Positions 1-16,358 of a stretch of DNA of 64,000 bases are shown one piece after another (positions within the stretch are counted from its first letter, which is position 1; each line of letters begins with the position of its first letter). The translations under genes and the position numbers were made by a program. This DNA is from Phycisphaeraceae bacterium (GTDB lineage Bacteria > Planctomycetota > Phycisphaerae > Phycisphaerales > Phycisphaeraceae), in contig OY771506.1 of assembly GCA_963674705.1 (NCBI GenBank), positions 5,248,001-5,312,000 on the forward strand, written 5' to 3'. The notes under the pieces are model-generated. The model did not search any database and had not been told where the DNA came from. It was given only the letters and a program-made list of their open reading frames with translations.

Positions 1-600
1 ACGACCACTTGGTTCAGCTTCACCATTCACATAGTAACCATCGTCCTGAAGATGCAATTCCTGCGGGACAAAGTTAAATGAAGTGGTATTCTCGATGGGC
101 GCTTCGGTAAGATTTATTCTGCATAGACCATTGTCATTGATCATACGCATCATAGTCAGAAAGTGTTTTTTAGTGTTTGATGTCATCTGCGGTATGCGAT
201 CAGAATCAACGGTGATAACATCTACAATCTCTTTACAAGCATCGCGTACTGTAGGTGTCACCTGATTCAGTAACTTGTTTATGGCATCAACACCACGATC
301 AAAAAGCGGATGCCCCGTGCACTTGAGAGCATATTTATGGACCATCAGCAATCCGAGTATCTCGCTTGTGCTTAAATCCGTTGTCGGAATTGTCATGTTA
401 GTGTCCATACGATATTCGCCCCGATTTGAGCATATTGGTTTGAGACCAATATCTGACAAGCATTTCATGTCCCGGAACAGAGTTCTGCGGCTGATTTGCA
501 GCTGATGGATTAGATCCTGGATGGTGAGGCCATTGCTGTTTTGTATCAGCATTGCTAACCGCAACAGGCGAGTGATCCGGGATGCGCGAGTGGAATCCAT
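1..600 (-). CDS. WYL-domain transcriptional regulator (YafY/PafBC-like), 3' end outside window
   Basis: Hand translation from ATG at 600 is open to base 1: MDSTRASRITRLLRLAMLIQNSNGLTIQDLIHQLQISRRTLFRDMKCL (winged HTH), IPTTDLSTSEILGL linker, and FVPQELHLQDDGYYVNG (WYL-like). Absent from the ORF track because it runs off the edge. Confidence 0.8.
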   Translation of the reverse strand, partial: MDSTRASRITRLLRLAMLIQNSNGLTIQDLIHQLQISRRTLFRDMKCLSDIGLKPICSNRGEYRMDTNMTIPTTDLSTSEILGLLMVHKYALKCTGHPLFDRGVDAINKLLNQVTPTVRDACKEIVDVITVDSDRIPQMTSNTKKHFLTMMRMINDNGLCRINLTEAPIENTTSFNFVPQELHLQDDGYYVNGEAEPSGR

Positions 601-708
601 AATCTAACTTTTGGTATGACGAAAGACATGAACTAAATGAAAATGGGGGGCACCTGAGGCTGGGCGAAGGGGGATAAGCCCATCTGATCCTGCAGGGCCC
701 CCCGGTGG

Positions 709-1071
709 CTATGTTGTGGATACGATTGCTTGTCCCGAGCTGCAGTCCTTTGAACTTCCATTCCAAAGGCAGTACGTCCCGGTCGGATCATCAGAAGGTT
801 CTCCGAGCCGGAAGTTAGTAATGCCTTGGCAACCGGATGGTGTAGAACCGTAATTAATGATTTGTAGTGCCCAAGATTGGTCCCCCCCTTCACTGATTGA
901 GTACAGATTAACTAATGTAAAGTCACCACTGCTTCCGCTATAAACTGAATCGCTGACTTTGCTTAATGTCTGTTGTCCCTGACACGGAGAAATAACAGAT
1001 AAGAGCAGCGTGTCCGGAAGCGCTCCCAATCCCTCTCGATTACGCAAAATGGTACTCTCTAAGACATCCAT
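709..1071 (-). CDS. Hypothetical protein, 120 aa
   Basis: ATG-started ORF upstream of and co-oriented with the WYL gene; no recognisable motif. Confidence 0.4.
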   Translation of the reverse strand: MDVLESTILRNREGLGALPDTLLLSVISPCQGQQTLSKVSDSVYSGSSGDFTLVNLYSISEGGDQSWALQIINYGSTPSGCQGITNFRLGEPSDDPTGTYCLWNGSSKDCSSGQAIVSTT

Positions 1072-1287
1072 AGGTACTAACCCTTAAAAATATTAATATG
1101 TTGATGTGAAGCCAGTTATAACCATTTATAACCATCTGCCCCTTTACACAGGGCAGATATTTCGCTAGTATCCCCCTTCGCGAAATAGCCGTGTCCATAA
1201 GTGAATACGCATGCATTTACGGCATCTTGCGCAGGTAGGGAGAAATGGGCTTGTGTTTCTTCTTTTCTCTTATCTGCGAGGTGGAAC

Positions 1288-1950
1288 ATGTCGTGTCGGA
1301 TTGCTCATATCCCACTGATCCTGCTACTTCTAGTGATTACTCTTCAATCTACGCAAGGTGCGATTATCACCGAGTTGTCCGCGATGCGCGGGCCTGTTCA
1401 GGATGGTGTTGCACTACCCCTGGCAATACCGACAACTTATGTCGGTAATGACGAGGTTGAGTTCAATGTGAACTTTTCTCAACCGTTTGTGGTTTTGGGA
1501 ATTACAGCAAGCATTCCCAAAGTGCAGTTTCTGTTCTATGTTGATGTTTCCGAAGCCGGTGGTACGACAGAGTATTTTTTCAACTTTGCATATCAGAACC
1601 ACACAGGTATTACATGGACCGATCTGTATTACACTATTTCTGCAGAATCATTAACAGGTACTCCAATAGTCGTACCGGGTTTAGACTTTGACTGGCCGGA
1701 CAAAACGGCGCTTGGGATGTCATCCCTCAATTTTGCCTATGTGGACCATCAAGAGACAATACTGCATTGGTATGGAGGTCAAGTAGTCGATCCGACAATT
1801 GATACGACGCTTGTACCTGTCGATGTACCGGATTTCTCTGAAGATTACTACATGGTCATCACGCTTGAAGTACCCGAACCATCAGCATTCACTGCCTTAA
1901 TGGTCATGGCGGGGGCTTGTGTGTACAGAAGGCAGATCCGGCTGAGCTAA
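1288..1950 (+). CDS. PEP-CTERM surface protein
   Basis: Signal peptide ([18 protein letters not shown]) after ATG 1288; C-terminal [22 protein letters not shown]. Confidence 0.85.
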
Positions 1951-2666
1951 TGGTTGGCAAACCACGAGTAGTCTTGATCAGCATCAGATATGTTGTCCGA
2001 GAGTTCACTTAGGGTAAGTCGTACAACAGAACTGTCGGCGTAGACAATATTCGCGGCTTCCCGGCCATTGTGGTGCATGCCCACACCCCACGTGACACTC
2101 CTTGCATAGGATGTGATTGGCATATACTGGAAGGTCATAGCTGTTCTACCAAAATAGAACAGCTCGGGGTCTGCAAACCATGGATAGTCTGAGGGTTTCT
2201 GTATCTCGTATCGGCTTTTACCTTCATTTAACACGGTCGCGGTTGAGTTCCATATCGAGTTGATTGAATACCCCCAGGTAATGCCCGCAAATAGAACGGT
2301 GTCGTTCTGGTCAATTATCGATGGGCAGGCATTGAACGTAGGAGGTTCTTCCTCCGAAAGTACCGGTGCATCCCCATAAACATTATTCATCAAATGAATC
2401 CATGTAGGATTGTTGATGGGGTCTGATGAGGCGTGCCGCGTAAGTGGGATACGGTCTTTATTGTTGTCCAGTGCGATTTCCCAGAAGGTCTGTATTTGGC
2501 GCAGGTTTGACATACACAGCGTGGCACGTGCTGACTTCCTGGCCGCGCCCAGAGCAGGCAGAAGCAAGCTAAATAGAATCGCAATGATCGCTATCACCAC
2601 AAGTAATTCGATTAGCGTAAAACCGCCCACGATCGAATCGGATTGCCGTCTGTTAACACCCCTCAT
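1947..2666 (-). CDS. Prepilin N-terminal cleavage/methylation (DUF1559-like) protein
   Basis: [33 protein letters not shown], and C-terminal [16 protein letters not shown] (H-X9-DG variant). Confidence 0.9.
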
Positions 2667-5596
2667 CGTGTACTCCAGCGGTAATAGCGATTCAATCCCA
2701 AGCCTATGACTTCCTCTCCGCTTTCAGTGAACTGTATTGTGGTAACAAGTCCTTCGATTTTGTCCTCAATGACATCCAGGACAAAGCCATGCTCCACTGA
2801 CCACACAGCAATTCGCTCGCCGGCTGTTATAAGGCGCTTCCCGTCAGGGGATAGTGCGAGTGATAGTATTGCACCAAGATCGCCCGCGCCCTCCATCCGC
2901 TTTTGCTCACCTGACACAACATCGATAACCGTCACTTCGTATTTACTGTCAACCGTTGCCACAATCGGAGATCGTCCGGCAACTGCCAGATAAATAATCG
3001 GATTACTGCCAAGCAGGTTGTTATACACCTGCCGTTTTAATTGAATATCTCTGACCTCAAGATAGTACTTCCCATCGGCATGCCTGATCATCACGATTTG
3101 TGGGTTGCTGGTACGAAGCCATTTTGCCGGCCCACGTCGATCAAACCAATGTACCGGATCGCCCCCGGCCTTTGGCCAGACAAGCACCTCTTGAGTGTTT
3201 GAGGCAACTATGAATGTACTGTGAGGCGAATAATCCAGCCAGAGTGCGGGCTGTAATGCCATCCGAATGGACTCAGAAGATAGTCTGTCTGCAAGAATAC
3301 TTACAAGCGAGTCGTTGTCAGCTACAGCAATTTGATGTGTGCGGTTATCCACCGCAATCGCCGATGTCATGCTGGGAAATTCGAATTGATCTAGCAACTT
3401 GCCATCTGATCTTTCACACCCAGAATCGAGCACATAAATATCGTTGCCTTCATTTGCACACGCAATATGCATGCCGTCGCTACTGACCGCAGATACCAGT
3501 GCGTGGCCGGATGGCCACATGTTCATTTCATGGATACCCCAATTTGTTTCCCACTTTTTCAGGATTCCGTTCGTGTCGAGGGAGTAGAGCCTCTCGCCGC
3601 TAAGATCAAACTTCGTCTTTACTATTGGATCAGCATGCCCGTATACAGGGCGATATGAGTTATTGCGCAGATCGACAAGGTAAATCGTACCGCTACTTGT
3701 GCCAGCAGAAAGCATCCCGGCATTATTGCTTGATGAGAGTGACCCCGCTTCCACAGGAAGTTCCACAATGATGGTTCTGTCTGTAGGTGACGACAAATCA
3801 TAATCCATCACATATCCCCCGGTATAACCAACGAAAAGGTGGCCGCCAAGAGATGTCAATGACAATGGCGATTCCCTCTCGAACTCCGAATTGAACTCTG
3901 TAACTGACAGCTTGTGAAGATCAAGCACATTAAAAGAAGTGTCATACCAGATAAGTCTGTTTGCTTCGTGGTCGAAAGTGACTGGCCCCCAAACCGACAT
4001 GGCTTGCTGTGAATAGATAACAGAATTAACCGCCATGTCGTATATAAACATTTCATCCGAATTCTTCAGCAGGATATAGCGACCGTTGTCACTCACGCGT
4101 AATAACAGAGCACCAGTTTCTGCCAAAATACTCGGGGGGGTATTAAGTGACGTTTCACGGTTCACAAATACATAGCGCCCTGAGCCATCAATTCCTATGA
4201 TGTAGTTTGCGCTGGGGCTGATGAATACGGGAGACAAAGTATGTTCTAACGGCGTGTTAAGTACTGAATCGGTCTTGTCCGAAGTAACCTTGCCAACCCG
4301 GCCTGAGGTCAGGATATAAAAGACATCTCCCGTTGGACCAATATTGAAGTCACGGATCCGACTCGGACTAAACTTCCAGGTATTAACTGATTGATCGGTC
4401 AGTTGTGACAAATACTTCCATTCCCATTGCCTGTGCTGTGGTTCAGTTTCTTCCAGCAGGTGCCTGGCTAGCTGTAACTCATCAGATGTAATTCTTTCGT
4501 GGGCGGAACGCATTGTATCCCTGTATGACTCAGCGCCGCTGCGCGATAATCGGGCTTGATTTACGACCTCTCTCTGATAAAACGCATATGAAAATACAGC
4601 CACCAGAAGAGTAATGGTCGCCACCACAGTCGCGCATTGGCGTAGCAGTATTCGATTTCGTTTAGCCCACAATAGTGTACGGCGCGTGTAGGTGTATGAG
4701 CGTGCTGAAATGGGTCGAAGGTCTAGCCAGAGACGCAACTCCCGGGCTAAGGCGCCCCCATCAGAGTACCGAGCCGATGTAATATTTGAAGTAGCCTTCT
4801 CGATGATCTTAAGCAGATCCAAATATTGATACGTGTCGCAATCTCGATCTGCTCCCGTGATCAGCATCTGGAGCAATCTGCCTAAAGCATAAACGTCTGC
4901 GCGAGAGCCAATGCTGACATTGGTCCCAAACTGCTCTGGCGCTGCGTATCCACTTGTCCCCCCGATATATGCTTGGCATGAATTTAATTCACGAGAGCCT
5001 TCTATTGCACGGGCTAAGCCAAAATCGACGATGTGAGGTAGACCATCTTCGCTAATCAATACATTAGTCGGTTTTATGTCAAGATGAACGACACTGTTGT
5101 CGTGAGCGTAGCCGATAGCATCGCTAACTCGTGCCACAAGATCTACGACCTGGGTTAACTTAAGGTGCTTTGCATGGACAAAGGTGTCAATTGGACATCC
5201 TTCGATCAACTCCATGACGTAAAAATACTCAAGACGATCAAGCCCACTATCGAACACACGAACTATAGCCGGATGCCTGAGCTTTGCTGCTAATAGCACT
5301 TCTATATGGAACAGCGATGCCGCACTTGGTTTATTTAGTAATTCATGCTTGAGAGACTTTAAGGCGACGATTTGTCCAGTCCCTAATTGCTTAGCTTTCC
5401 ATACTGTCCCCATGCCCCCTTGGCCGATCTTGCTGAGAATGCTGTAACCCTCTTTGGCGGCGGGCTGTTGAATGGAGATGTATTCCGGCCCGACATCATC
5501 CAACGCTGACTCATCTGTGACAGCAAGAGCCATTCCCAGCAACTCACGTGCTGCCATATCAGATACGAGTTCAGATGGATCGTTGTATCTACTCAT
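2663..5596 (-). CDS. Membrane Ser/Thr protein kinase with C-terminal WD40/beta-propeller repeats
   Basis: [25 protein letters not shown] and GYAAPEQ kinase motifs; TM segment [27 protein letters not shown]...WD-like repeats. Confidence 0.92.
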
Positions 5597-5644
5597 ATCG
5601 AATATCTAAGAACGCTATGGCTGGATAACAAAGCAAATAATCCA

Positions 5645-6370
5645 TTAACCGGTTGTAGGCCCTGAAAGTGCGATGAATAAGTCTTTGATTTCGTCCTCAA
5701 CTTCTCGTCCAGTAAAAACATACTCACTCAACACGTCTCGTACTACGCGGCCGAACATTCTCTTGCTGGTTACAAGCAAGTTGCTGACCTGTGAATTGGA
5801 TGATGAGCCAAACTCACGCACGATCTGACTGATCGGGACTGGTTTCTCATTGTTGAAGATTGGTTTCAGAAGCCTTGCATCAAACACTTCCCACAGATCA
5901 GGCCGATCCACTTGTATGCATTCAAGTTCCATTTGCTTGATAGCTAAAGACACTACCTGCTTCCCCCAGTCGCGATCAAAATCTCGGTCTGGGGTGTTTG
6001 TGTTTTCCGTAGCATCTTCTGCGATCGTACTCAGTGAAGCTATTGACTCTGGAGATCGATGAGAAGCATTACTACGTCTGATTCGGTCTCTTGCATAATT
6101 ACTTAAAACTGTTCTGATTAAGTTACGGAACCGACCCTGTGACTTATCGGCACGTTCAAGAAGATTGGAATCAAGTATTCGATCAGCCAAAAAATCATTC
6201 AGCAGATCATCTGCATCACTAGTTGCAGCAAGTCGATGCCGGACAATGTGACGCTTTAGTGCAGGACTATAGCGCGTGATGATCAGTTCAAGCGCGGCTC
6301 GTTTTTTGAGAGGATCGCCGGTTTCGACAGCCTCAAAGAGAGACCAGCGTGTTGTTGGAAACGGATCCAT
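5645..6370 (-). CDS. ECF sigma-70 factor of the planctomycete kinase-associated type
   Basis: N-terminal FPTTRWSL, DADDLLNDF, GRFRNLIRTVLSNY, FDRDWG; directly upstream of the kinase gene. Confidence 0.85.
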   Translation of the reverse strand: MDPFPTTRWSLFEAVETGDPLKKRAALELIITRYSPALKRHIVRHRLAATSDADDLLNDFLADRILDSNLLERADKSQGRFRNLIRTVLSNYARDRIRRSNASHRSPESIASLSTIAEDATENTNTPDRDFDRDWGKQVVSLAIKQMELECIQVDRPDLWEVFDARLLKPIFNNEKPVPISQIVREFGSSSNSQVSNLLVTSKRMFGRVVRDVLSEYVFTGREVEDEIKDLFIALSGPTTG

Positions 6371-6711
6371 TAATCTCCCAGCTGATGAAAATGTCTAAAC
6401 CTGCCAGAGCCAGAACAGCTTATTTTTGGCATTGGATAGCAATATCTATCACAAGCACTATAAAGACATTAGGGATTATTGCATAAGGGTTAACCCGGAG
6501 TCAAGAAGAAAAAACGCCCCGACCAGCACAAGGCCAGTCGGAGCGCTTCCGGGGGCAAGATATTTCGAACACAGTCTAGGCAAGTTCGAGGTTAAGTCAA
6601 TTATTCTCTGAGTGATTATGAAGAAATATAGATAGTGTCATCAGCAACTTGTGTAAAAAACTATTGGCACATCACTCAAGCAATGGGTACAAGATCATCA
6701 CCTACTTACAC

Positions 6712-7455
6712 TTATGTCGAATCATTTAGCATCATCGCGGCATCGATCATCAGGCCGGCGATCGTGTCGGCGGGAGCAAATCGGAAGGCATAGAACGCCG
6801 GCGAGAAGTCGCAGCCCGCAAGGAAACGGCCGGAGTTTGCCTCTTGTGCGCGTGTCGTGCTTTGATCCATCATGCGACGTGCTGCCGGCGGCAGGGTTAC
6901 GTGGACTTTCTCACAGTCGACACCCATGAACCAACCGGCCGGGCCGACATAGCTCATCACTTCATTAGTCTTCGCCTCGGTCATCGCACGCTGTGTCTCA
7001 TAGTCGAGGCCACACCAGAACAAGATCGCCGCCAAGCGTGCGGTGTTGTGGTCGTAGCCTTCGGCTGCTTCTTCGAATAGCTCGAGCGCCACACGGTGCA
7101 CTTCATACCATTGCTCCACCCAGTCATCAGGCCCGGGCTTCGGTGTCGGTGGCACGGCCCACGGCGATGTGTCGGGCTTTGGCGCCTGCTGATCCACCGG
7201 CAATGACTTGGGCACGTGCACCCGCACATCGTCATAGGCTCGATTCACAGCCTGCCTGAACCGGTCACGGTCAATCTCAGTGTCGATGTAGACGATGCGG
7301 TCCTGATGATCGATGGTGTAGTCGATCGGCTCGCCCATTGATTCGAGGTTCTTTGTCGGCTTGAGGGTGTACCCGTGGAGGGTGATGTCGATCGCCAGGT
7401 CTTCGGGGTCCCAATCCAGCGATGCGATGGGGATGTATTTGGGGTTGGGTTTCAT
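6712..7455 (-). CDS. Hypothetical protein, 247 aa
   Basis: Long ORF with Pro-rich linker, co-oriented downstream of 7546..8091. Confidence 0.65.
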   Translation of the reverse strand: MKPNPKYIPIASLDWDPEDLAIDITLHGYTLKPTKNLESMGEPIDYTIDHQDRIVYIDTEIDRDRFRQAVNRAYDDVRVHVPKSLPVDQQAPKPDTSPWAVPPTPKPGPDDWVEQWYEVHRVALELFEEAAEGYDHNTARLAAILFWCGLDYETQRAMTEAKTNEVMSYVGPAGWFMGVDCEKVHVTLPPAARRMMDQSTTRAQEANSGRFLAGCDFSPAFYAFRFAPADTIAGLMIDAAMMLNDST

Positions 7456-7545
7456 CCGTGTGCTCCGTTTCCAGTTCGGGTGTGGCGTGTGTTTAAAGAC
7501 CCCCGAGCCCCGGGGGAAGCTCCGGAGCCGGGGGCAATCAAAGAT

Positions 7546-8091
7546 TCAGTGGGTCAGGCGGTAGGTTTGTCCGTTCATCCTGATGGACACGATGCTGTCG
7601 ATGGCGATGGTGCGTTCGATCACTTCCCGGTCGATGCCCTGCCGACTGCCGGCCTTAGCGGGCATGAAGGGGTCGAGTTCTGCCGGGTCGATCAACTCGG
7701 CGGTGTCGATCGTCTCGAAACGCCGCCACAAGCAACGCTCAACCTTGACGCTCAAGTACGTCTTGCCCTTGTGCTCAACGATGGGCGTGCCGGGGATGCG
7801 TTCGCCCCACTGGCGGCTGCATGCCTGGAAGTCGCCGGCCTTCTCTTCACGGCCACGCTGGCGGTTCACCGCGGCTTCGTAGTCGTAGTTCAGCACGCCG
7901 TTCAGGGCCTGCACCTTGACGACGTTGCCGGCGTAGGGGTTGCCGGTCTTGCGGAGCCGGGGGTCGGTCCTGGTGGTGATGGTGACGATCCGCGTGCCGG
8001 TATTCACGGCCAGTTCTGCGAGAAGTTCATCGGCGGTCAGGGCCGGGGTTTCGGTCGCGGGCATCGTGATTGGGCTGGTCAGGGTTGTCAT
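7546..8091 (-). CDS. Conserved phage-type hypothetical protein
   Basis: TDPRLRKTGNPY...NYDYEAAVNRQRGRE...WGERIPGTPIVEHKGKTYL resembles an uncharacterised phage family (from recall); first gene after the leftward promoter. Confidence 0.7.
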   Translation of the reverse strand: MTTLTSPITMPATETPALTADELLAELAVNTGTRIVTITTRTDPRLRKTGNPYAGNVVKVQALNGVLNYDYEAAVNRQRGREEKAGDFQACSRQWGERIPGTPIVEHKGKTYLSVKVERCLWRRFETIDTAELIDPAELDPFMPAKAGSRQGIDREVIERTIAIDSIVSIRMNGQTYRLTH

Positions 8092-8135
8092 TTTCAGGCC
8101 TCTCGTATCAAGAGGTGATTCTTAACTCTACATAG

Positions 8136-8164
8136 AGTGTATCGGATACGATACACAATGTCAA
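8136..8164 (-). promoter_or_regulatory. Leftward sigma70 promoter overlapped by a palindromic operator
   Basis: Minus strand TTGACA (8164-8159), 17 nt spacer, TACACT (8141-8136); perfect palindrome GTGTATCG-GATA-CGATACAC at 8137-8156. Confidence 0.8.
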
Positions 8165-8211
8165 GGGTAAATATGTATGATTTTCGTATAATTTAACTAT
8201 TAATACGGCCG

Positions 8212-8240
8212 TTGCCGTATCGTATGCGATGCGGTACACT
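8212..8240 (+). promoter_or_regulatory. Rightward sigma70 promoter overlapped by a second operator
   Basis: TTGCCG (8212-8217), 17 nt spacer, TACACT (8235-8240); CCGTATCG-TATG-CGATGCGG at 8215-8234. Confidence 0.75.
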
Positions 8241-8271
8241 TATTGTGTGTATGGGGCCTGGAGAATCTCAG

Positions 8272-8499
8272 GTGAGTAGCGACATCCGACAGGCAATCCG
8301 CGACCGAATCGAAGCCAGGGGTTTCAACATCAGTGAGTTGGCCGATCGTGCCGGCTTTTCCCGCGTCACACTCAGCCGTTATCTGTCCGGCCAACAAGAC
8401 CTCACCACGGCCAAGCTGCAACCCTTGATTGATGTGCTGGGCCTTGAGCTACGCGCATCACGCGGCAGGCCATCTAAAAAATCAGGATCTGGAGGTTAA
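8272..8499 (+). CDS. XRE/Cro-C1 HTH regulator
   Basis: GTG start after GGAGA; NISELADRAGFSRVTLSRYLSGQQDLTTAKLQPLIDVLGLEL. Confidence 0.88.
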   Translation: MSSDIRQAIRDRIEARGFNISELADRAGFSRVTLSRYLSGQQDLTTAKLQPLIDVLGLELRASRGRPSKKSGSGG

Positions 8500-8501
8500 T
8501 T

Positions 8502-8720
8502 TTGCCAAGAGAATCAGATGAACCTGATCCTAAACCGTGGGCCTTGTTTGATGGATATCGCATTGGCCACGATGTCACAAAGCGCAGATTGGATGGCCAG
8601 GTTGATCGTCGTGCCAACAACACATACATCATTGTCGCCCAAGTCCTGCTGAAGGGTTCAGATGGCCAGCAGATGGCCAAAGAAATGGTTGATAAACTGA
8701 ATCGCGCCGATGGATTTTAG
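8502..8720 (+). CDS. Small hypothetical protein
   Basis: TTG start after GGAGG, immediately following the XRE stop. Confidence 0.55.
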   Translation: MPRESDEPDPKPWALFDGYRIGHDVTKRRLDGQVDRRANNTYIIVAQVLLKGSDGQQMAKEMVDKLNRADGF

Positions 8721-8859
8721 CTGTTAATCAACGAATGCTGCAGTTTGCATGAAGTACGCTTACTAAAGACGGTCGAGGAACGGACACCAGGACGCCCGCC
8801 AAAAGAGGAAGCATGAGCCTCGCCCCTCCAGCCAAGGCTTGCATGACCGACAGGATGAC

Positions 8860-9075
8860 ATGATGAGTGAGAGCAAGACTGTAGATCCGGCAAAGCGCAA
8901 ATACCTCAGGCCCGAAGAGGTCGCGGATTACTATCGCATCAGTGTCAAGACATTGAAACGTCGTCAGGGAAAAGACTTACCCCGTGGGCTAAAGGTGGGT
9001 GGTCAGTGGCGTTGGTGGGGACCGGCCATCCTTGAGTTTGACCGCCAGTTGCGGGAGAAAGCGGAACAGCGGTAA
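8860..9075 (+). CDS. Excisionase/AlpA-like HTH protein
   Basis: YLRPEEVADYYRISVKTLKR...LPRGLKVGGQWRW. Confidence 0.82.
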   Translation: MMSESKTVDPAKRKYLRPEEVADYYRISVKTLKRRQGKDLPRGLKVGGQWRWWGPAILEFDRQLREKAEQR

Positions 9076-9422
9076 CACCTCCACGGCCCCACATTAGCCG
9101 CCTAACGGCTCAGGCTCGCCGGCGGTTCATGGCCGGGATTGCTTGGGACGCGAGATTCTGGCAAGTAATCCATCCGATCACAGGCAATACAGGGAGGTGG
9201 GCCACCGACTTCTTGGCAGAGCCCGCCCCATTCACTTTTCCTTGCCCTTACCCCGCCCCATCGGTATCCTCAAGACTCACTTCTCCGGCTGATGTCTTCC
9301 CGGGGATCGCAGTAAACACTTGATTCGTATGGGGGCGATGTGTTGCGCCATGACGCACGAACACAATTCGGGTTCATTCATAGCTTTCTGACGAGGTCAC
9401 ATTCAACTTGATGAGGTGACGG

Positions 9423-10571
9423 ATGTTCCAATTCATCCTGGTCGTCCTGCTGGCGGTTTTCATATCTGCGACAGTTGTATTGGCGATCTTTGTGGCCGAG
9501 TTCTACGGCCGCGGCGGCAGGACCATCATCAGGCAGTGGCGTATCGCCCTATCAAAGCGTCGCCAGGTTAACGATGCTCTGAAACGCGCCAGCGCCGGCG
9601 AGGCTTATGCAGCCAGAACCATCCAAGAAAAACGTGTCATAGAACAAAAGATGGAGATGCTGGAGAAGAAAACAGAAGGTCGGCTTTCATGCATGGGCAG
9701 CTACATCATCTCAGAGCAATGTGGCGATCACATCAAGGGGATACGGGCAAACAACTATCACGCGAAAGAGAAGAAGATCCTTCGATCAATCGAGGTCGCC
9801 GCCAAGAACGGCTACCACCTGCCGAAGACTGAGCGCGAACAACTGAGCCGCATGCTCAAGCAAGCACACGATGAGGCGATACGGGCGGAGAAGGAAAAGG
9901 AACGCCAGGCGGAGATACGTGCACAGATGCGTGAGGAAGAGAAGCGGGAGCGTGAGTTCCAGCGTGCCATCAAAGAAGCTGAGAAGGAAAAGAATCTCAA
10001 GAAAGCAGCTCTTGAAGAAGCCATCCGGTTGCTCGGTGATCAGCACAGCGAAGAGGTTGACCGATTGAAAGCCGAACTCGCCGAAGCGGAGGCCAAGGCA
10101 GAACGAACCATCAGCATGGCGCAACAGACACGCGCCGGCCACATCTACATCATCAGCAACATCGGGAGCTTTGGAAAGAACGTGTTCAAGGTCGGCATGA
10201 CCAGACGGCTTGAGCCGATGGAGCGGGTCAAAGAACTTGGTGACGCATCCGTCCCCTTCTCATTCGACGTCCATGCCATGATCAGCTCGGACGACGCCCC
10301 TGCCTTGGAAACCCAATTACATCAGGACCTGGACAAGCACCGCGTGAACCGTGTGAATTATCGAAAAGAATTCTTCAGGGTCGACTTGAACACGATCATC
10401 CAGTGTGTTCGCAAAAGGCATGGCGAGGTTGAATATCAGGCCGACCCCGAAGCATTGGAGTATCTTGAGACACTGGCCCTGCTCGAAGGGGATGAGGATG
10501 TCGAGCAATTGATCGATCGTGATGCAGATTTGGTTGAAGAGGATATGCAGACTGACACAACAAAACGGTAA
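9423..10571 (+). CDS. DUF4041 plus T5orf172/MUG113 (GIY-YIG-like) protein with N-terminal membrane anchor
   Basis: N-terminal TM, coiled coil EKERQAEIRAQMREEEK, and GHIYIISNIGSFGKNVFKVGMTRRLEPMERVKELGDASVPFSFDVHAMI...RKEFF. Confidence 0.9.
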   Translation: MFQFILVVLLAVFISATVVLAIFVAEFYGRGGRTIIRQWRIALSKRRQVNDALKRASAGEAYAARTIQEKRVIEQKMEMLEKKTEGRLSCMGSYIISEQCGDHIKGIRANNYHAKEKKILRSIEVAAKNGYHLPKTEREQLSRMLKQAHDEAIRAEKEKERQAEIRAQMREEEKREREFQRAIKEAEKEKNLKKAALEEAIRLLGDQHSEEVDRLKAELAEAEAKAERTISMAQQTRAGHIYIISNIGSFGKNVFKVGMTRRLEPMERVKELGDASVPFSFDVHAMISSDDAPALETQLHQDLDKHRVNRVNYRKEFFRVDLNTIIQCVRKRHGEVEYQADPEALEYLETLALLEGDEDVEQLIDRDADLVEEDMQTDTTKR

Positions 10572-10589
10572 TATGCCTGGAGATTTGTT

Positions 10590-11000
10590 ATGCCCAAATA
10601 CACGGTTAGCGGGATCGATAGGGAGGATGGCGGGGTCCGCTTCACCACGGTCACAGCAAACAACTCAGACGATGCAGCCAAGATGGTCGGTTTCCAGGTT
10701 GAGAAAGTCGAGCAGGTTCATGACCAACCATCGCCGCCGGCAAAGCCGCCTTCATCAAGGACACCCAGCTATCCCGTGATGGCGATCTACATCGTTCTGC
10801 TGCTGGTGATCGGCTACCTGCTGGTTATCATTGGCTGCCTGACCTTTTTGATTTCACTGCTGCCTGCTGATGGCCATGAGGGGGCACAAATAGGTGGCGG
10901 GTTGTTCGCACTCTACGCCGTCCCTACCGGCCTTGGCCTCGCGTTGATGGGTGAGGTGTTACGAGCCTTCCGCGACATCGCACGCAATAGCTTCAGGTGA
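10590..11000 (+). CDS. Small membrane protein with two TM helices
   Basis: Soluble N-terminus, Pro linker, two hydrophobic segments, ending GEVLRAFRDIARNS. Confidence 0.7.
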   Translation: MPKYTVSGIDREDGGVRFTTVTANNSDDAAKMVGFQVEKVEQVHDQPSPPAKPPSSRTPSYPVMAIYIVLLLVIGYLLVIIGCLTFLISLLPADGHEGAQIGGGLFALYAVPTGLGLALMGEVLRAFRDIARNSFR

Positions 11001-11073
11001 ACCGAGCGAATCGTTGGGTCCGCTCACACGGGCTATGGGTAACATATGACTGACTCAACACGGACGGTAAGCG

Positions 11074-11313
11074 ATGCATCAACTGCCAGATCTACCGGAT
11101 AAGAAGTGGCTCAAGCCTTGTGACCTCATGGAATACTTCGGGGTATCTAGGTCAACACTAGGCCGAATGGTGAAGGATGGCTGGCTCCGAAAACCTGACA
11201 CGAGTTTAGGTGAACGCAATCCCCGTTGGTGGGCGCCAATGGTTGATGAGTATGCCCGCCGGCAGATTGAGGCAATAGAGTCAGCACGAAAGCAGCAATT
11301 CAACCAAACCTGA
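11074..11313 (+). CDS. AlpA-family HTH regulator
   Basis: WLKPCDLMEYFGVSRSTLGRMVKDGWLRKP...RNPRW. Confidence 0.82.
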   Translation: MHQLPDLPDKKWLKPCDLMEYFGVSRSTLGRMVKDGWLRKPDTSLGERNPRWWAPMVDEYARRQIEAIESARKQQFNQT

Positions 11314-11393
11314 AGGTGGGATTGCCAACCAAAGTTAAAATGCAAAGGCATGACTTGCCTAGGACTTCACCGAGGCATTGAATTTACACCAGC

Positions 11394-11813
11394 TTACGCA
11401 TTTCTTTCTAATTCGACCGTTTCACCCAGGAATGAATACTGTGCGTGAATATGAAAAATACCTTCAAGCAGTGTGACGCAATTACGAACCATGATCGGTA
11501 TCAAGCAGGGCTTTCCAACTAGTTTTTCGAAGCTGATATAGATCATGTCATCTGTTTGCATTTCCTGTTTGGTAATACAGCTAATCCCTCCGATAGACAG
11601 GTCAACAGCATAGGCTTCACATAGATCCTCATATTCGCCCTCACCAACTTGGTGCAACAAGGAGACCTTGGCGCCAAAGTAAAATCGATGGTGGCGCCGT
11701 CGCTCCCTTTGTTCTTGATCACGCTTCTCCAGTCCACGTACAAGTTTACCAATGGCTCTTCGAAGTTGCTCATTCGAAGTAAGTAAATTCAACTGTGTCA
11801 TTTGCTTCCCCAA
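11394..11813 (-). CDS. PilZ-domain (c-di-GMP-binding) protein
   Basis: RxxxR motif (ERRRHHR) and D-x-S-x-x-G motif (DLSIGG). Confidence 0.85.
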   Translation of the reverse strand: MGKQMTQLNLLTSNEQLRRAIGKLVRGLEKRDQEQRERRRHHRFYFGAKVSLLHQVGEGEYEDLCEAYAVDLSIGGISCITKQEMQTDDMIYISFEKLVGKPCLIPIMVRNCVTLLEGIFHIHAQYSFLGETVELERNA

Positions 11814-12193
11814 AATGATCGCATGGTTAATAACTGACTCAAGTCACGTGAAAATACCAATCTGATAATCATGTGAATACTTGTACGCATACAGACACAC
11901 CACGCTAGCATTGTCGGCTAACCATTGGGCCAGTCTCAAATTGCGAGTGCCAACACCGTGTCACTGATTTACTATTTAAGTTCTATGGCAATGTAAATTG
12001 TTGCAGCATAACTTTAGTTAGGCTCTACCATTGGTAGGTATCAATGGTTGATGAGCATTCCCCGTCGGTGCTATGTGAAGTCGACCGATCCCACCGTGGT
12101 TGCCGCACTCGCAGAGGTACGTATCAACGTCAACCAAGCGTACCGCATGGTGGTAGGACCGAAGCCAGCTTACAGTGAATTATGATTCGCGAC

Positions 12194-12583
12194 TCAAGCG
12201 GTAGATTCAACCACCTCGCCACTCGCCTGCTCGCCCACGGTGACGTCCAGCATCCGCCGGCCGCTACCAGCCAGCCCGTGCCCATCGGTCCAGGCGACGC
12301 ACCACACGGGCGTCAGGGCCGGCGTGGGCGCCTCGGTGTCGTGGTCCCACACGACCAGCACGGCCCCGGTACCGCGGTCGCGTACACGCCACATTACGCG
12401 GCTGTGCTTAGGATCGCCGGGGAAGCCGGGATCATCACGCCAATGGGGTTGGCCTAACGCTTCAGCGATGCGGTCGTAGGGTGTGCGCAGTGTACCCGTG
12501 TGCTGGTATTTGATCCGCTCGGTAGTGGGAATGGGTTGAAGCTCAATCATGAGTAGTCGGCGATCCTGCTGGGTGTGGGGCAT
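12194..12583 (-). CDS. Hypothetical protein
   Basis: Last ORF of the leftward operon that starts at 15987. Confidence 0.55.
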   Translation of the reverse strand: MPHTQQDRRLLMIELQPIPTTERIKYQHTGTLRTPYDRIAEALGQPHWRDDPGFPGDPKHSRVMWRVRDRGTGAVLVVWDHDTEAPTPALTPVWCVAWTDGHGLAGSGRRMLDVTVGEQASGEVVESTA

Positions 12584-12600
12584 CTCAATCGGTCACCAGT

Positions 12601-12879
12601 CTACCGCACGTCGCGGCGTAGGTTGTAGATGTACTGAACCAATTCGGCCGATCGCCCATCTTCCTCAATCAGCTTGCGGCACATCTGCGAGTCGCCCAGT
12701 GCCCCAAATCCGCATAGCCTCTCGCCGAGTTCCGCCGCTGCGTCATGTGCTACAGGATCGGTGAGGATCCACCCCATCATGGCGTGTATCTCTTCCGTGC
12801 TAACGCCGTTGGCCATGCGGCCGACTGATTCACGGACCCGCTTCTCAAGCTGTTGAATGCGGTTTCTTACAGTGCTCAT
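12601..12879 (-). CDS. Hypothetical protein, 92 aa
   Basis: 4-nt start/stop overlap with 12876..13214, suggesting translational coupling. Confidence 0.65.
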   Translation of the reverse strand: MSTVRNRIQQLEKRVRESVGRMANGVSTEEIHAMMGWILTDPVAHDAAAELGERLCGFGALGDSQMCRKLIEEDGRSAELVQYIYNLRRDVR

Positions 12880-13214
12880 AATGAATCTATCCCCATCTGC
12901 TGTTCAAGCTGGTCGAGGCGTTCGATCAGGTCGGCTTCGATTGGCTTACCGAGGCACCGGTCGAGTACTTCCTTGGCAGCCTGCACGTTGCCTTCAAGTG
13001 CCAGCTCCACCAGTTTCTTGACGATGTCGGTCAGTTCATCCTCGGTGACTGCGGTGAGCATAGTTGCTCGCAGCCTGTTCACTTGTTTGGCGTGTGGATT
13101 ACCCTTGCCACCCTTCCATCCAGGCAGAAAACGGCCCGTGTCGGGGTCTCGCCCATTTCCATTGGACCCATTAAGTGATGGATTCTCATTGTCGCTTTTA
13201 TTTGCCATGGTCAT
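12876..13214 (-). CDS. Small-terminase-like / DUF5681-like protein
   Basis: GRDPDTGRFLPGWKGGKGNP and LVELALEGNVQAAKEVLDRCLGKP motifs. Confidence 0.65.
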   Translation of the reverse strand: MTMANKSDNENPSLNGSNGNGRDPDTGRFLPGWKGGKGNPHAKQVNRLRATMLTAVTEDELTDIVKKLVELALEGNVQAAKEVLDRCLGKPIEADLIERLDQLEQQMGIDSL

Positions 13215-13222
13215 ATCCCTTT

Positions 13223-15400
13223 TTACGTTGCTAGCGATGTCGCCGCTTGTTCAATCAACGCACTTAACGCGTCAAGATTTTCACTGACCCGGTTCATCGT
13301 GCCGGCGTTTTGCTGGGCGTTCTTTTCTTGCTTTTGCATGAATTCACGCTGTTGTTTGAGGAACTCTCGTCCGATCGCGTCGAACAAACCGGGTAACTCA
13401 TTGATCGTGTTGCCCAGGCCCTCTACTGACTGTTTGAGTTCGCCACCGGATACAACATCGGCCGCGTTGTAGGCTACATCATCGCTCGGCTTCGCCATCC
13501 GCCGCACAGCCGTCTCAAATCCACCCGGTCGGTCTGCCCCGCCTGATCCACCGACCATCACGTCAAACATGCTTCTGTTCGCCATGTCGTCCGATCCACC
13601 GGGCTGGCCAACGGTGTGTTGATTCGTCTGCATGCCGGAGTCTGACAGTTTCAGCCCATAGAGTGAGCCGATGATGCTTTTGAATGTCGCGTCTTCGGGT
13701 AATCCTAACTGGCTCTTGATGATGCCGATGGGGTCAAACTTCGGGTCTGACTGGCTGGCACGTTCGTTGTACTTATCCAAGAAACGGCGTTGCGCCTCTG
13801 TCAGTGTTGACAGCAGGTATTTTTCAAGGGAATCTTGAATCAGCCCCGCATTCTTCGGATTCTGAGCGGCCGCTTCATTTGCATCCTTAATCCGCTTCAG
13901 CGTTGCAGGCGATCCGAAGCCGGCCAGTATCTTGTCGGCCTCCAGTTCCGTGTTGGCTTTGTCCTGTGCGATCTTCCTGATGCGCTTGCGTGCGCCGGGG
14001 TCGCTCTCGTACCGGTCCGCAACCTCCGGATCACTGAGCATGCCTTCAAGTATCCGGTTAAACCGATCAGCAAACGGGGCTTTCAGCCGCCTCTTAGCAT
14101 CGTTGATCTGCTCGGGTGTGACCTTCCCCAACTCGATCGCATTGACACCCACACCGTACAGGTCGCCCTGACGCCCGGGCTCGGTGGGTGCGAACCTTGT
14201 GGCGATGTCGCCTATCAGGTCGCGGATGGGCTTGAGTGCATCGATCTGGCCGGCAGACTCACGAAGCGCAGCCGCGCCACGTTGTAAGACACCACCAGAC
14301 GATTTCTCAGCCGCTGCCAGTGACTTCTCATCGATGCCGAGGAATTTGGCCAGGCGTGGGGCGATGGTCTGGATTCCCCGACCGATAGCAGCAGCTACCT
14401 GCTTACCCATGGCCGCATAATCGAGCGAGCCCAGAATATCGAGCAGCGCAGCCGCACCGAGTTTGAAAGCTTTCTCCAACAGCCCGCCCAGTGTCTTAAA
14501 CAGGGCCGGTCCAAGCTGGATAATGCTTACCAAGATGCCCTTGGCAATGTCTTTGCCCTGATCGCCTTGTAGGCCGGCCAGAATGTCGCCGGTAAGTTCA
14601 GCAACATACTGGATCGCATCACGCACGAAACCGATTTTGACCACCCACCGCCCTACCTCACCAACGATGTCTTTGATGTTGCCGAAAATCGCGTTGTAGG
14701 TCAGATACAACTCATCACCCTGAAGGCCAAGCCGATGAGCACGCTTTTCCAATTCTTCAACGGTGCGATTCAGGGTTTTCGCTTGCTTGGCGGCGAGTTT
14801 GAGCCCTTGAAGTTCCTCCGCGCCAACGAAGATGCCGAAACGTTTGGGCGGTTCACCGCGGGCGATCGAATTCAGCAACTCTTCGATGTCGGGCCCGATG
14901 CTGTCTTGACGACCACGCGCTACGGCCAGGACCGTGAACGCCGAAATCAATCTTTCGATCTTCTCAACAGGGACATCGAGAATGCCCGCCTGGTTTGCCA
15001 ACTCTGAAGCGCGTGCGAAATCGAGCATGCCGGCCGATGCTGCGTTGATGCGACTGATATATCGGCCCGCCACCTTCTCAGTGACATCCAGTTGTTTGGC
15101 CAGTGCCTTGGTGCGCAACTCTAACGCTGAGGCGTTGCGGATAAGCCGGTCAGTCCCCAGCCCACCCAGCCCGATACCAATGATCGCTTGGATACTGGTA
15201 AGCACTCTGAAGGGTGCCATTAGCGCCTTAGCAAGAATGCTGCCGGCGACACCGATGCCCTTGAAGGATGCCGATGCAATCCTCCCCACGGACCTGAATG
15301 CACCACCGAGGCGATTCTCGACCATGCCGGCATCACGCCGAAGCTGTTTTTCAAGCTCTCTGCCGTCTGTCTGGATTTCCGCACCAATCACGATTGCCAT
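13223..15400 (-). CDS. Phage tail tape-measure-like protein
   Basis: 725 aa, Ala/Gly/Leu-rich and predicted helical; hydrophobic N-terminal stretch with 11-residue Phe spacing (FRSVGRIASASF); lies directly downstream of a frameshifting chaperone gene. Confidence 0.72.
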   Translation of the reverse strand: MAIVIGAEIQTDGRELEKQLRRDAGMVENRLGGAFRSVGRIASASFKGIGVAGSILAKALMAPFRVLTSIQAIIGIGLGGLGTDRLIRNASALELRTKALAKQLDVTEKVAGRYISRINAASAGMLDFARASELANQAGILDVPVEKIERLISAFTVLAVARGRQDSIGPDIEELLNSIARGEPPKRFGIFVGAEELQGLKLAAKQAKTLNRTVEELEKRAHRLGLQGDELYLTYNAIFGNIKDIVGEVGRWVVKIGFVRDAIQYVAELTGDILAGLQGDQGKDIAKGILVSIIQLGPALFKTLGGLLEKAFKLGAAALLDILGSLDYAAMGKQVAAAIGRGIQTIAPRLAKFLGIDEKSLAAAEKSSGGVLQRGAAALRESAGQIDALKPIRDLIGDIATRFAPTEPGRQGDLYGVGVNAIELGKVTPEQINDAKRRLKAPFADRFNRILEGMLSDPEVADRYESDPGARKRIRKIAQDKANTELEADKILAGFGSPATLKRIKDANEAAAQNPKNAGLIQDSLEKYLLSTLTEAQRRFLDKYNERASQSDPKFDPIGIIKSQLGLPEDATFKSIIGSLYGLKLSDSGMQTNQHTVGQPGGSDDMANRSMFDVMVGGSGGADRPGGFETAVRRMAKPSDDVAYNAADVVSGGELKQSVEGLGNTINELPGLFDAIGREFLKQQREFMQKQEKNAQQNAGTMNRVSENLDALSALIEQAATSLAT

Positions 15401-15412
15401 GATGTACCTCGA

Positions 15413-15640
15413 TTATCTGGTTGCCCTCTCCGCTTCTTGTTCACGCTTGCGGAGGATGGCGGCGCAAAACGGATAGATTCTTGTTATGTAATCGCCGTAG
15501 TTCCGTTCGATGAAACTCGCATCGACGCCCGTTACCTCTTTAATCGCACCGAGCATTGACAGCCGGTGCATGATCACACACGCACCGACGTCGGGGCATT
15601 CGGCCCCGTTCAGGAATTGCTCGGTGCCTCGGATTTTCCC
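15413..15640 (-). CDS. -1 frameshift extension of the tail chaperone (gpGT-like, about 191 aa fused product)
   Basis: In-frame G GGA AAA heptamer at 15640-15634; the -1 frame reads GKIRGTEQFLNGAECPDVGACVIMHRLSMLGAIKEVTGVDASFIERNYGDYITRIYPFCAAILRKREQEAERATR* and stops at 15413, 12 nt before the tape-measure ATG. Confidence 0.75.
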   Translation of the reverse strand, partial: GKIRGTEQFLNGAECPDVGACVIMHRLSMLGAIKEVTGVDASFIERNYGDYITRIYPFCAAILRKREQEAERATR

Positions 15641-15987
15641 TCGATAGCGTCCGCCGATTCGTCATCACCACCGGACAGGTCGAAGCCGTTGGCCTTCAGC
15701 AGTTCGTCGTTAAACCACGGACCGAACGCCGGCTCCTGATGAACCACCGCATCAAGGGCACGAACCGAGTACGGCGCGGCGTTGCCGTCTGGGGTCTCGA
15801 CGCCTTCCCACTTGAGGACGCCAACGCCCTGCTGGGCCAGCTCTACGAACACGCCACCCATGCCGCCGTTACTGTTGGCCAGCAGCTTTGTTCGTTGCGT
15901 GTGGCCCAGCCGTTTGAAGGTGACAGTGATCCCCGTTGGCTCATGGGTCAGGGTGGTGGTCTGCTTGTGTTCAGCATTCAGTTTCAT
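15610..15987 (-). CDS. Tail assembly chaperone, short form (gpG-like)
   Basis: ATG 15987 after AAGGA; VTFKRL...KWEGVETPDGNAAPYS; ends EGK at a slippery site shortly before the stop. Confidence 0.72.
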   Translation of the reverse strand: MKLNAEHKQTTTLTHEPTGITVTFKRLGHTQRTKLLANSNGGMGGVFVELAQQGVGVLKWEGVETPDGNAAPYSVRALDAVVHQEPAFGPWFNDELLKANGFDLSGGDDESADAIEGKSEAPSNS

Positions 15988-16054
15988 GTTCAGTGTTCCT
16001 TGCCGGCTTGTGTGACACCCAGCGGCCACCGGCGGGCCGTGGGCTGGTGAGTGT

Positions 16055-16306
16055 TCATGTCTCGCGTGTCAGCGTCAGGATGGCCGCACGCCGGCCGGGG
16101 GACATCCGGGCCAGGGCGTTGATGTGATCAACCACCGCCGCCCTCTCGGCCTCGGGTATGGCGTTGAGCGCGTCGGCCAAGCCATCCAGATCAGGATTGT
16201 GAATTGTGGAAAACGCAGGCAGTGCGCCGCATTCTGCGCCGCCTACATACGAAAAGTCGATATTTCCCGGGAAATCGTAGGGGTGTTCACACCCTCTCAC
16301 GGTCAT
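16055..16306 (-). CDS. Small element-terminal hypothetical ORF
   Basis: GGAECGAL...PDLDGLADALNAIPEAERAAV resembles short ORFs recalled from the ends of planctomycete integrative elements. Confidence 0.4.
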   Translation of the reverse strand: MTVRGCEHPYDFPGNIDFSYVGGAECGALPAFSTIHNPDLDGLADALNAIPEAERAAVVDHINALARMSPGRRAAILTLTRET

Positions 16307-16358
16307 TCGGGATCACATTTGCTTAGCTATCGTTTCACTTCCAGATCGGTAACGCATA

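Follow-up and report, generated by a model that had tools for sequence, protein, structure and literature searches.

The 64,000-nucleotide stretch analysed here (the window; Phycisphaeraceae bacterium, GenBank assembly GCA_963674705.1, contig OY771506.1, positions 5,248,001 to 5,312,000 of the forward strand) contains at positions 12194..16306 a leftward operon encoding a tail chaperone, a tape measure protein (TMP) and a protein resembling the small terminase subunit (TerS). This operon forms the right-hand end of an integrated island 20,734 bp long. Sequence comparison indicates that the island is probably a satellite of a temperate siphophage which supplies part of the tail, so that chimeric tails would be built. 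This reading is based on the attachment (att) sites, an integrase, AlpA, a Rep-like gene and a syntenic sister element under purifying selection at another tRNA gene. An initial annotation of the same sequence had regarded the operon as stand-alone, and had proposed either a tail-hijacking satellite or a system that poisons tail assembly. The stand-alone view proved wrong, since the island's genes for integration and replication are found beyond the left edge of the window. The satellite proposal gains support from the features listed above and from synteny with prophages and phages, while tail poisoning found no direct support.

The source genome (G000) is a single contig (C1) of 5.54 Mb, and the window corresponds to G000:C1:5,248,001-5,312,000. 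Other G numbers denote comparison genomes: G088 belongs to the same genus as G000, G099 to another genus, and G013 is a member of the family. Feature coordinates are window positions unless a genome is named.

Results

The element sits in a tRNA-Arg(CCG) gene and occupies C1 5,243,559-5,264,307; its in-window part is 1..16307, and it extends 4.4 kb further left, up to the tRNA gene. The right att core (16293..16307, plus strand) is a 15-bp direct repeat of the 3' end of tRNA-Arg(CCG), and within the 5.54 Mb of the genome this 15-mer is present only at the two ends of the element. The initial annotation had advised reading the sequence left of the window for an integrase and att sites, and both were found. 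At this left end all genes run on the minus strand toward the tRNA gene, in the order AAA_22-like gene, AlpA, Rep-like gene, a small open reading frame (ORF), an HTH_17 excisionase-like gene and a tyrosine integrase (PF00589, 1e-8; phrog_1, 5e-41). AlpA (75 aa) matches PF05930 above the cut-off (E=4e-7). The Rep-like protein (294 aa), of the initiator type with a helix-turn-helix (HTH), matches replication-initiation PHROGs (2.7e-6) and has no Pfam match at 1e-3; no primase or helicase was recognised in the element.

An 83-aa frame upstream of the chaperone (16055..16306, minus strand) had been described as a short ORF in the position where a siphophage has its tail tube gene. It starts inside the right att core in the frame of the integrase, and is the C-terminal extension that the integrase acquires in the excised circle. 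In the computed circle the integrase has 501 aa, compared with 461 aa in the integrated state, and its stop lies 67 nt before the chaperone. The integrases of two related elements read through att likewise, reaching 587 aa in G088 and 502 aa in G099, and in the G099 circle the integrase stop overlaps the start of a neck gene. In all three elements (G000, G088, G099) the tail genes follow the integrase solely in the excised circle. Since att lies inside the integrase gene, only excision would join the run of replication and integrase genes to the tail and packaging operon.

The operon itself had been described as intact and tightly coupled, and this description holds: its frames of 125, 725, 112, 92 and 129 aa are all open on the minus strand, and neighbouring frames are -4 to 17 nt apart once the tape measure is reached. 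Profile scans covered a chosen subset of the element's frames, in the window and left of it. Capsid, tube, portal and large terminase (TerL) had no match among these scanned ORFs, and an unrecognised capsid-morphogenesis gene among the unassigned ORFs is possible; head, tube, tip and lysis genes were not recognised in the element. Scans for promoters and terminators stayed at chance level, and a hairpin 5' of the chaperone is no more stable than shuffled sequences.

The chaperone G (125 aa, 15610..15987) matches phrog_313 (E=0.0026) and has a homologue in a G013 prophage. A -1 slippery heptamer (15634..15640) is located at nt 348 of G, and the same position is kept in G088 and in the G013 prophage. 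The frameshift would lead into the T part (15413..15633, -1 frame) and yield a GT product of 191 aa, as compared with 189 aa in G088 and 190 aa in the G013 prophage. GT ends at 15413, 12 nt before the start of the 725-aa gene (13223..15400). The G013 cluster reads capsid (phrog_29), adaptor, neck, tube (PF18906) and chaperone, after which a long protein begins and is cut off where the contig stops. Its chaperone (phrog_313, 2.5e-8) is 38% identical to the element's G over 79 aa, and the long protein is 57% identical to the first 35 residues of the 725-aa protein. A second G013 contig matches residues 100-295 at 31% identity (205 aa aligned, E=3e-27), and we infer that the two contigs carry one tape measure gene. 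In the ESM Atlas the neighbours of the 725-aa protein are viral clusters that include a TMP_3 cluster (0.96). Synteny establishes the predicted products of this pair as chaperone and tape measure. In lambda tail assembly the chaperone must match its tape measure, a need with which the joint inheritance of the two genes here is in keeping. The initial annotation had also pointed to a non-canonical C-terminal region, possibly delivered by the tail. The C-terminal half is conserved up to about residue 580 in three close relatives, which argues for a lineage-specific region, and nothing in it points to a delivered effector.

The element of G088 (14,747 bp, in tRNA-Gly(GCC), 54-bp repeat) has the same gene order as that of G000: integrase tail, chaperone, T, TMP, TerS-like gene, 100-aa and 116-aa genes, Upx, 181-aa and 247-aa genes, AAA, AlpA, Rep and integrase. 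Identities between the two are 76% for the chaperone, 54% for T (over 52 aa), 62% for the TMP (655 aa in G088) and 67% for the TerS-like protein, and the G088 integrase has no tblastn match to that of G000. Nei-Gojobori ratios of nonsynonymous to synonymous substitution (dN/dS) were calculated for nine orthologue pairs and were estimable for eight. They range from 0.07 to 0.38, with 0.16 for G, 0.11 for T, 0.07 for the TerS-like, 0.38 for the 92-aa and 0.13 for the 129-aa gene, and 0.15, 0.14 and 0.30 (247-aa gene) for the other three pairs. The TMP pair shows a pN of 0.29 versus a saturated pS of 0.78. These estimates indicate that the element's genes are under purifying selection where the ratio is estimable.

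A counterpart of the island in a near relative, G087, is a relic. The flanks there are 94% identical to those of G000, and at the same tRNA-Arg lies a 4-kb remnant (L009:14,228-18,290) with another integrase, in which parts of the 92-aa gene and of the TMP end, 93% identical to G000, are fused. The agreement between fragments (93%) and flanks (94%) suggests that the module stayed intact in G000 while its G087 counterpart was deleted. These observations bear on the scenario that the island is itself a decayed siphophage prophage, which lost its head, tube and tip genes and carries the rest as passengers. In favour of such decay, the nearest non-satellite homologues sit in the full morphogenesis cluster of G013, the AAA gene is split in G000, the relic exists, and a dN/dS calculated from just one pair of genomes may in part reflect selection that acted on an ancestral phage. 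However, the same reduced gene order is found with intact att pairs at two tRNA genes and with different integrases, a third element carries a different tail set in the same slot, the TMP-TerS order is absent from the prophages of G013, G079 and G087, and the module persisted in G000 where its G087 counterpart was lost. Simple decay is quite unlikely on this evidence.

The third element was found via the 181-aa gene, homologues of which are present in 4 of 144 genomes. It is located in G099 (18,109 bp, in tRNA-Val(CAC), 18-bp repeat) and shares with G000 the integrase (45%), AlpA (51%), the 181-aa protein (50%), the 129-aa protein (44%) and Rep. In the same slot, G099 carries a neck gene (phrog_222, 7e-10), another chaperone, for which a slippery site of its own gives a GT of 223 aa, and a canonical TMP of 969 aa (phrog_28, 3e-15) without a match to the 725-aa TMP. 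The fourth 181-aa match (G063) lies near a contig end and is without tail genes. A recurrence of the chaperone-TMP-TerS order together with an integrase, for which the initial annotation had asked, is seen in G088; G099 has the backbone with a different tail set. A search for further members gave 3 of 401 genomes of the order and 1 of 401 of the class. Searches for TMP homologues gave at least three proteins each among the matches listed, and those for chaperone homologues gave 4 and 17 proteins, without genomic context. No viral or metagenome loci were found for the chaperone, the TMP, the 129-aa protein or the G013 tube, and a chaperone profile run against five viral records gave no convincing match.

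Downstream of the TMP, the 112-aa frame (12876..13214) resembles DUF5681, with a PF18932 score (E=0.0013) below the cut-off, and has no match to a TerS profile. Homologues of DUF5681 are present in 24 of the 144 family genomes. IMG/VR holds six loci with such a homologue, and in all four that were scanned the next ORF is a PHROG TerL; at one further IMG/VR locus the homologue is preceded by a primase and followed by a short ORF. Because its homologue stands directly upstream of TerL, the 112-aa gene occupies the small-terminase position, and its product is by position a TerS-like candidate. In 9 of 27 family loci the DUF5681 gene is followed, with an overlap, by a short ORF whose N-terminal helix resembles that of the element's 92-aa ORF. 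GenBank phages gave no match for the TerS-like or chaperone proteins, and DUF5681 is mentioned in one paper, without a function. Of the loci in family genomes, 18 were fetched with wider surroundings, and many of them lie beside tRNAs, integrases, AlpA or primases; among the matches listed for these 18, none was to the element's TMP. A packaging hijack led by TerS, with the tail genes in some other use such as complementing a defective helper or a host head-gene cluster, would agree with this spread of DUF5681 homologues near tRNA, integrase or primase genes without a TMP, and with a portal-scaffold-capsid cluster and a TerL that G000 holds outside any recognised prophage. A TMP with its chaperones requires a tail tube, however, and no tube was recognised in that head cluster, which makes this use of the tail genes very unlikely.

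Two smaller frames complete the operon. The 92-aa ORF (12601..12879) overlaps the stop of the TerS-like gene, and is placed in the ESM Atlas near unnamed, half-viral clusters only. The 129-aa frame (12194..12583) is 73% identical to its G088 homologue and serves as a marker of the element family: its homologues measure 113-116 aa, and G088 and G099 were its sole matches in GTDB genomes.

Candidate helpers were sought among prophages. The G099 element resembles a G079 prophage in its neck (42%), chaperone (32%) and a 172-aa protein (36%), and the G079 homologue of the latter is the gene before a TerL-sized ORF. Capsid and adaptor of the G079 prophage match those of G013. The likely helper group, judged from these similarities, comprises siphophages of the kind seen as prophages in G013 and G079, with a phrog_29 capsid, a Mu-gpG-like neck and a Mu-gp36-like adaptor. 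A transposable helper of the Mu type, prompted by phrog_296 on the AAA-like gene, was rejected: this profile matches every one of 14 control genomes, and in the prophage of G079 no transposase was seen, whereas genes of recombination and primase-like type were. Also rejected was a complete 32-kb prophage of G087, which has no tblastn match to the element's proteins at E<0.01.

The source genome holds a head-gene cluster at G000:C1:1,738,000-1,750,264 and 1,770,267-1,774,553, with portal, scaffold and an SU10-type capsid and, 20 kb away, a TerL-like gene. It stands amid housekeeping genes at host GC content, and in G099, too, a TerL-like gene stands next to the same neighbour gene; the cluster is possibly domesticated and gene-transfer-agent-like.

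TMPs were surveyed at 66 places in the 144 family genomes, 38 of which were judged by ORF layout and six in detail. Most of the 38 loci look like full prophage clusters, several of which are truncated at the edge of a contig. Another four, of other backbones, are small islands that carry an integrase and in which no tip genes follow the TMP: in G002 (14.8 kb, tRNA-Arg), G071 (9.2 kb, tRNA-Thr, with a split TMP), G068 (17.6 kb, with two capsid-like ORFs) and G069 (where the contig stops inside the TMP). Among seven prophage TMPs compared, those nearest to the TMPs of G000/G088, G099 and G002 differ in each case, and the G068 satellite TMP has no match. The islands of G068 (L208, C39) and G069 (L209, C24) are related and both lie at tRNA-Ile; the capsid-like ORFs of G068 stand in tandem, and this island also carries a 982-aa TMP and a 57% homologue of the PD-Lambda-1-like gene of the G000 element. 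A further island in G088 (L245, G088:C2:1,782,900-1,788,400), beside tRNA-Ser, has a prohead protease, a capsid and a 571-aa TMP-like protein that is 32% identical to a prophage protein in TMP position; its capsid gene has two copies with equal scores (the other at G088:C2:2,465,873).

Discussion

In the scenario that we favour, infection or induction of a helper of the G013/G079 type would lead to excision of the element, and the circle would join the AlpA-Rep-excisionase-integrase run to the chaperone-TMP-TerS run on one strand. The element's TerS would recruit the helper TerL so that element DNA is packaged in helper heads. Its G and GT would coat its own TMP, on which the helper tube would polymerise, and the resulting tails would carry the ruler and ejection protein of the satellite. 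This corresponds to the initial proposal, in which the TMP would be loaded into a helper tail and packaging redirected.

More tentatively, the family may change helper by swapping tail-initiation cassettes into one slot, with expression gated by excision; this is possible rather than probable. Such cassettes would be chaperone-TMP or neck-chaperone-TMP sets from local siphophages, and in G099 the integrase and the tail operon would be translationally coupled in the circle. If this were so, capture of tape measures would be recurrent in the family, as the four further TMP islands among the 38 loci would illustrate, and likewise the fact that every satellite TMP with a match has its own nearest prophage TMP.

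The tail genes could also serve as a defence, in which chaperone and TMP act as decoys that spoil the tails of incoming siphophages and are not built into own particles. The elements do carry defence cargo in three of three cases, namely PD-Lambda-1 in G000, Upx in G088 and PDC-S05 (PADLOC), and tail-targeting defences exist, namely Rta and, reportedly, Tai and Tab. However, tail building needs just such a set as a TMP of full length, the two chaperone forms with their conserved frameshift and, in G099, a neck gene; the chaperone, TMP, TerS-like, 92-aa and 129-aa proteins have no PADLOC match, and Rta is an 80-aa protein encoded outside the tail cluster (PMC12987554). We regard a decoy function as unlikely.

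Several observations weigh against a tail-supplying satellite. The searches turned up just three members of this backbone. The 725-aa protein is without a Pfam match at E<=0.1 and without a PHROG match at E<=1, and its C-terminal half has no significant alignment to the G013 tape measure. The TerS assignment comes from gene position only. In G000 the search for a helper came up empty: PF03237, PF03354, phrog_29, PF05065, phrog_28 and the G013 tube are unmatched there, and the one phrog_2 TerL match belongs to the host-resident head cluster, which is without a recognised tube. Compared with its G088 counterpart, the AAA-like gene of G000 is split, and together with the G087 relic and the split TMP of G071 this shows that such elements do decay. 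The initial annotation had itself named three contrary findings: homologous loci that are always complete prophages, a 725-aa protein without tape-measure similarity, and neutral evolution. None was obtained in full. The nearest homologue outside the element family does lie in the full G013 prophage cluster, and the tape measure identity finds support in synteny, the G013 homologue and TMP_3 but not in Pfam or PHROG profiles; neutral evolution is not borne out by the dN/dS values.

The pattern was unrecognised in the initial annotation, and yet it has published precedents. PLEs of Vibrio cholerae, satellites of ICP1, encode a TMP and a TAC and build chimeric tails; loss of tmp lowers transduction by 96-99.9%, tmp genes are also reported from other putative satellites and cf-PICIs, and the available text states as an open question why satellites build chimeric tails (PMC12987554). 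As far as that text describes them, PLEs resemble our element in being capsid-less satellites with their own TMP and chaperone and no tube, in having two tail types of <25% identity (compare G000/G088 with G099), and in that some members add a tail part, BhuB in PLEs and the neck gene in G099. The differences lie in the PLE helper, which is lytic and contractile-tailed, whereas the element's homologues come from temperate siphophage-type prophages with frameshifted G/GT, and in the host phylum (V. cholerae versus Phycisphaerae) and the absence of a baseplate hub from the element. The element would work like a PLE, and membership of that group is not claimed.

EPIPs of Mycolicibacterium aichiense encode TerS and a TMP and have tails longer than those of the helper (PMC12822802, available part). 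They share with the element a small TerS-TMP satellite organisation with a temperate helper, a putative one in the element's case, the element's TerS being assigned by position. In contrast, they are ~11 kb in size, have a serine integrase and a head-tail adaptor and stopper, and no chaperone is named in the accessible text (PMC12822802); the element has a tyrosine integrase, G/GT and no adaptor or stopper match.

PICIs (PMC10085698) share integrase, AlpA and accessory cargo with the element, and possibly also a replication gene and a small terminase, for which the element has a Rep-like and a TerS-like candidate. Their model treats tail genes as 'forbidden' components (PMC10085698), whereas the element carries chaperone and TMP. 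The element further differs from PICIs in having no recognised capsid-morphogenesis gene, a Rep-like protein of the initiator-type HTH class instead of a primase-helicase, and backbone genes that run toward the integrase on one strand. Cf-PICIs have their own capsid, portal, TerL and head-tail connector, none of which was found in the element, and a complete siphophage prophage would differ by TerL, portal, capsid, tube and tip, which were not found in these 20.7 kb between both att sites. The attP of Mx8 lies inside a tyrosine integrase gene, and integration swaps the C-terminus (PMC4701971, available part); the element shares this arrangement, but its split also parts the integrase from the tail and packaging operon.

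The chimeric-tail mechanism is therefore already known, published for PLEs and proposed for EPIPs. New are the apparently unrelated Phycisphaerae lineage, the G/GT chaperones, the swappable tail modules and possibly excision-gated expression. Our literature search, mostly of open-access sources, found no tail-gene satellite and no phage-inducible chromosomal island in Planctomycetota and no frameshifted chaperones in satellites, and by titles and the beginnings of abstracts PLEs and EPIPs were the sole TMP-bearing satellites. Chimeric-tail piracy was shown in 2025-26 in Vibrio PLEs only, with a contractile-tailed helper. The Planctomycetota case looks independent, and through its natural allele swaps each cassette can be linked to a recognisable group of prophages. 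Elements of this kind will escape tools for which tail genes are forbidden. Apparently the hosts are known from assemblies only, which limits direct tests.

Additional features of the island and its host genome

Two backbone genes lie on the minus strand left of the operon: the conserved 181-aa gene (7546..8091; 85% identical to G088, 50% to G099) and the 247-aa gene common with G088 (6712..7455; 54%). The 181-aa family also occurs among the small genes of large phage contigs, and in one of these contigs there is also weak similarity (E=5e-4) to the 129-aa protein. The 181-aa gene was found at 34 loci in metagenomes and 8 in viruses, none of which matched the tail genes of the element. In runs X1 and X2, a contig of 13.2 kb gives 21-base matches to both the 181-aa gene and the TerS-like gene (7882-7902 and 12908-12929); they stand in the same order at a distance of 2.8 kb, which hints weakly at a further relative.

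The middle of the island is low-GC cargo with a WYL regulator, a kinase, a PilZ protein and the PD-Lambda-1-like defence gene (9423..10571, plus strand), which has a T5orf172/MUG113 domain (PADLOC E=3e-88; Pfam). The low-GC block at 1201-6370 includes a PEP-CTERM-like gene, a prepilin-type gene and a Ser/Thr kinase with WD40 repeats, and its 241-aa ORF is ECF sigma factor-like by eye only.

Two other islands are present in the source genome. One (G000:C1:1,869,026-1,884,391; 15.3 kb, tRNA-Gly(GCC), 46-bp repeat) has an integrase, a primase-like gene, a DUF5681 homologue (37%) and methylase and nuclease-like cargo, and no tail genes were seen in it. The other (G000:C1:541,828-575,134; 33 kb, tRNA-Gly(TCC), 48-bp repeat) has an integrase, a primase-polymerase-like gene and an AlpA homologue. 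An array of 30 tRNAs is located at G000:C1:622,407-634,804, and a similar array follows the G068 island.

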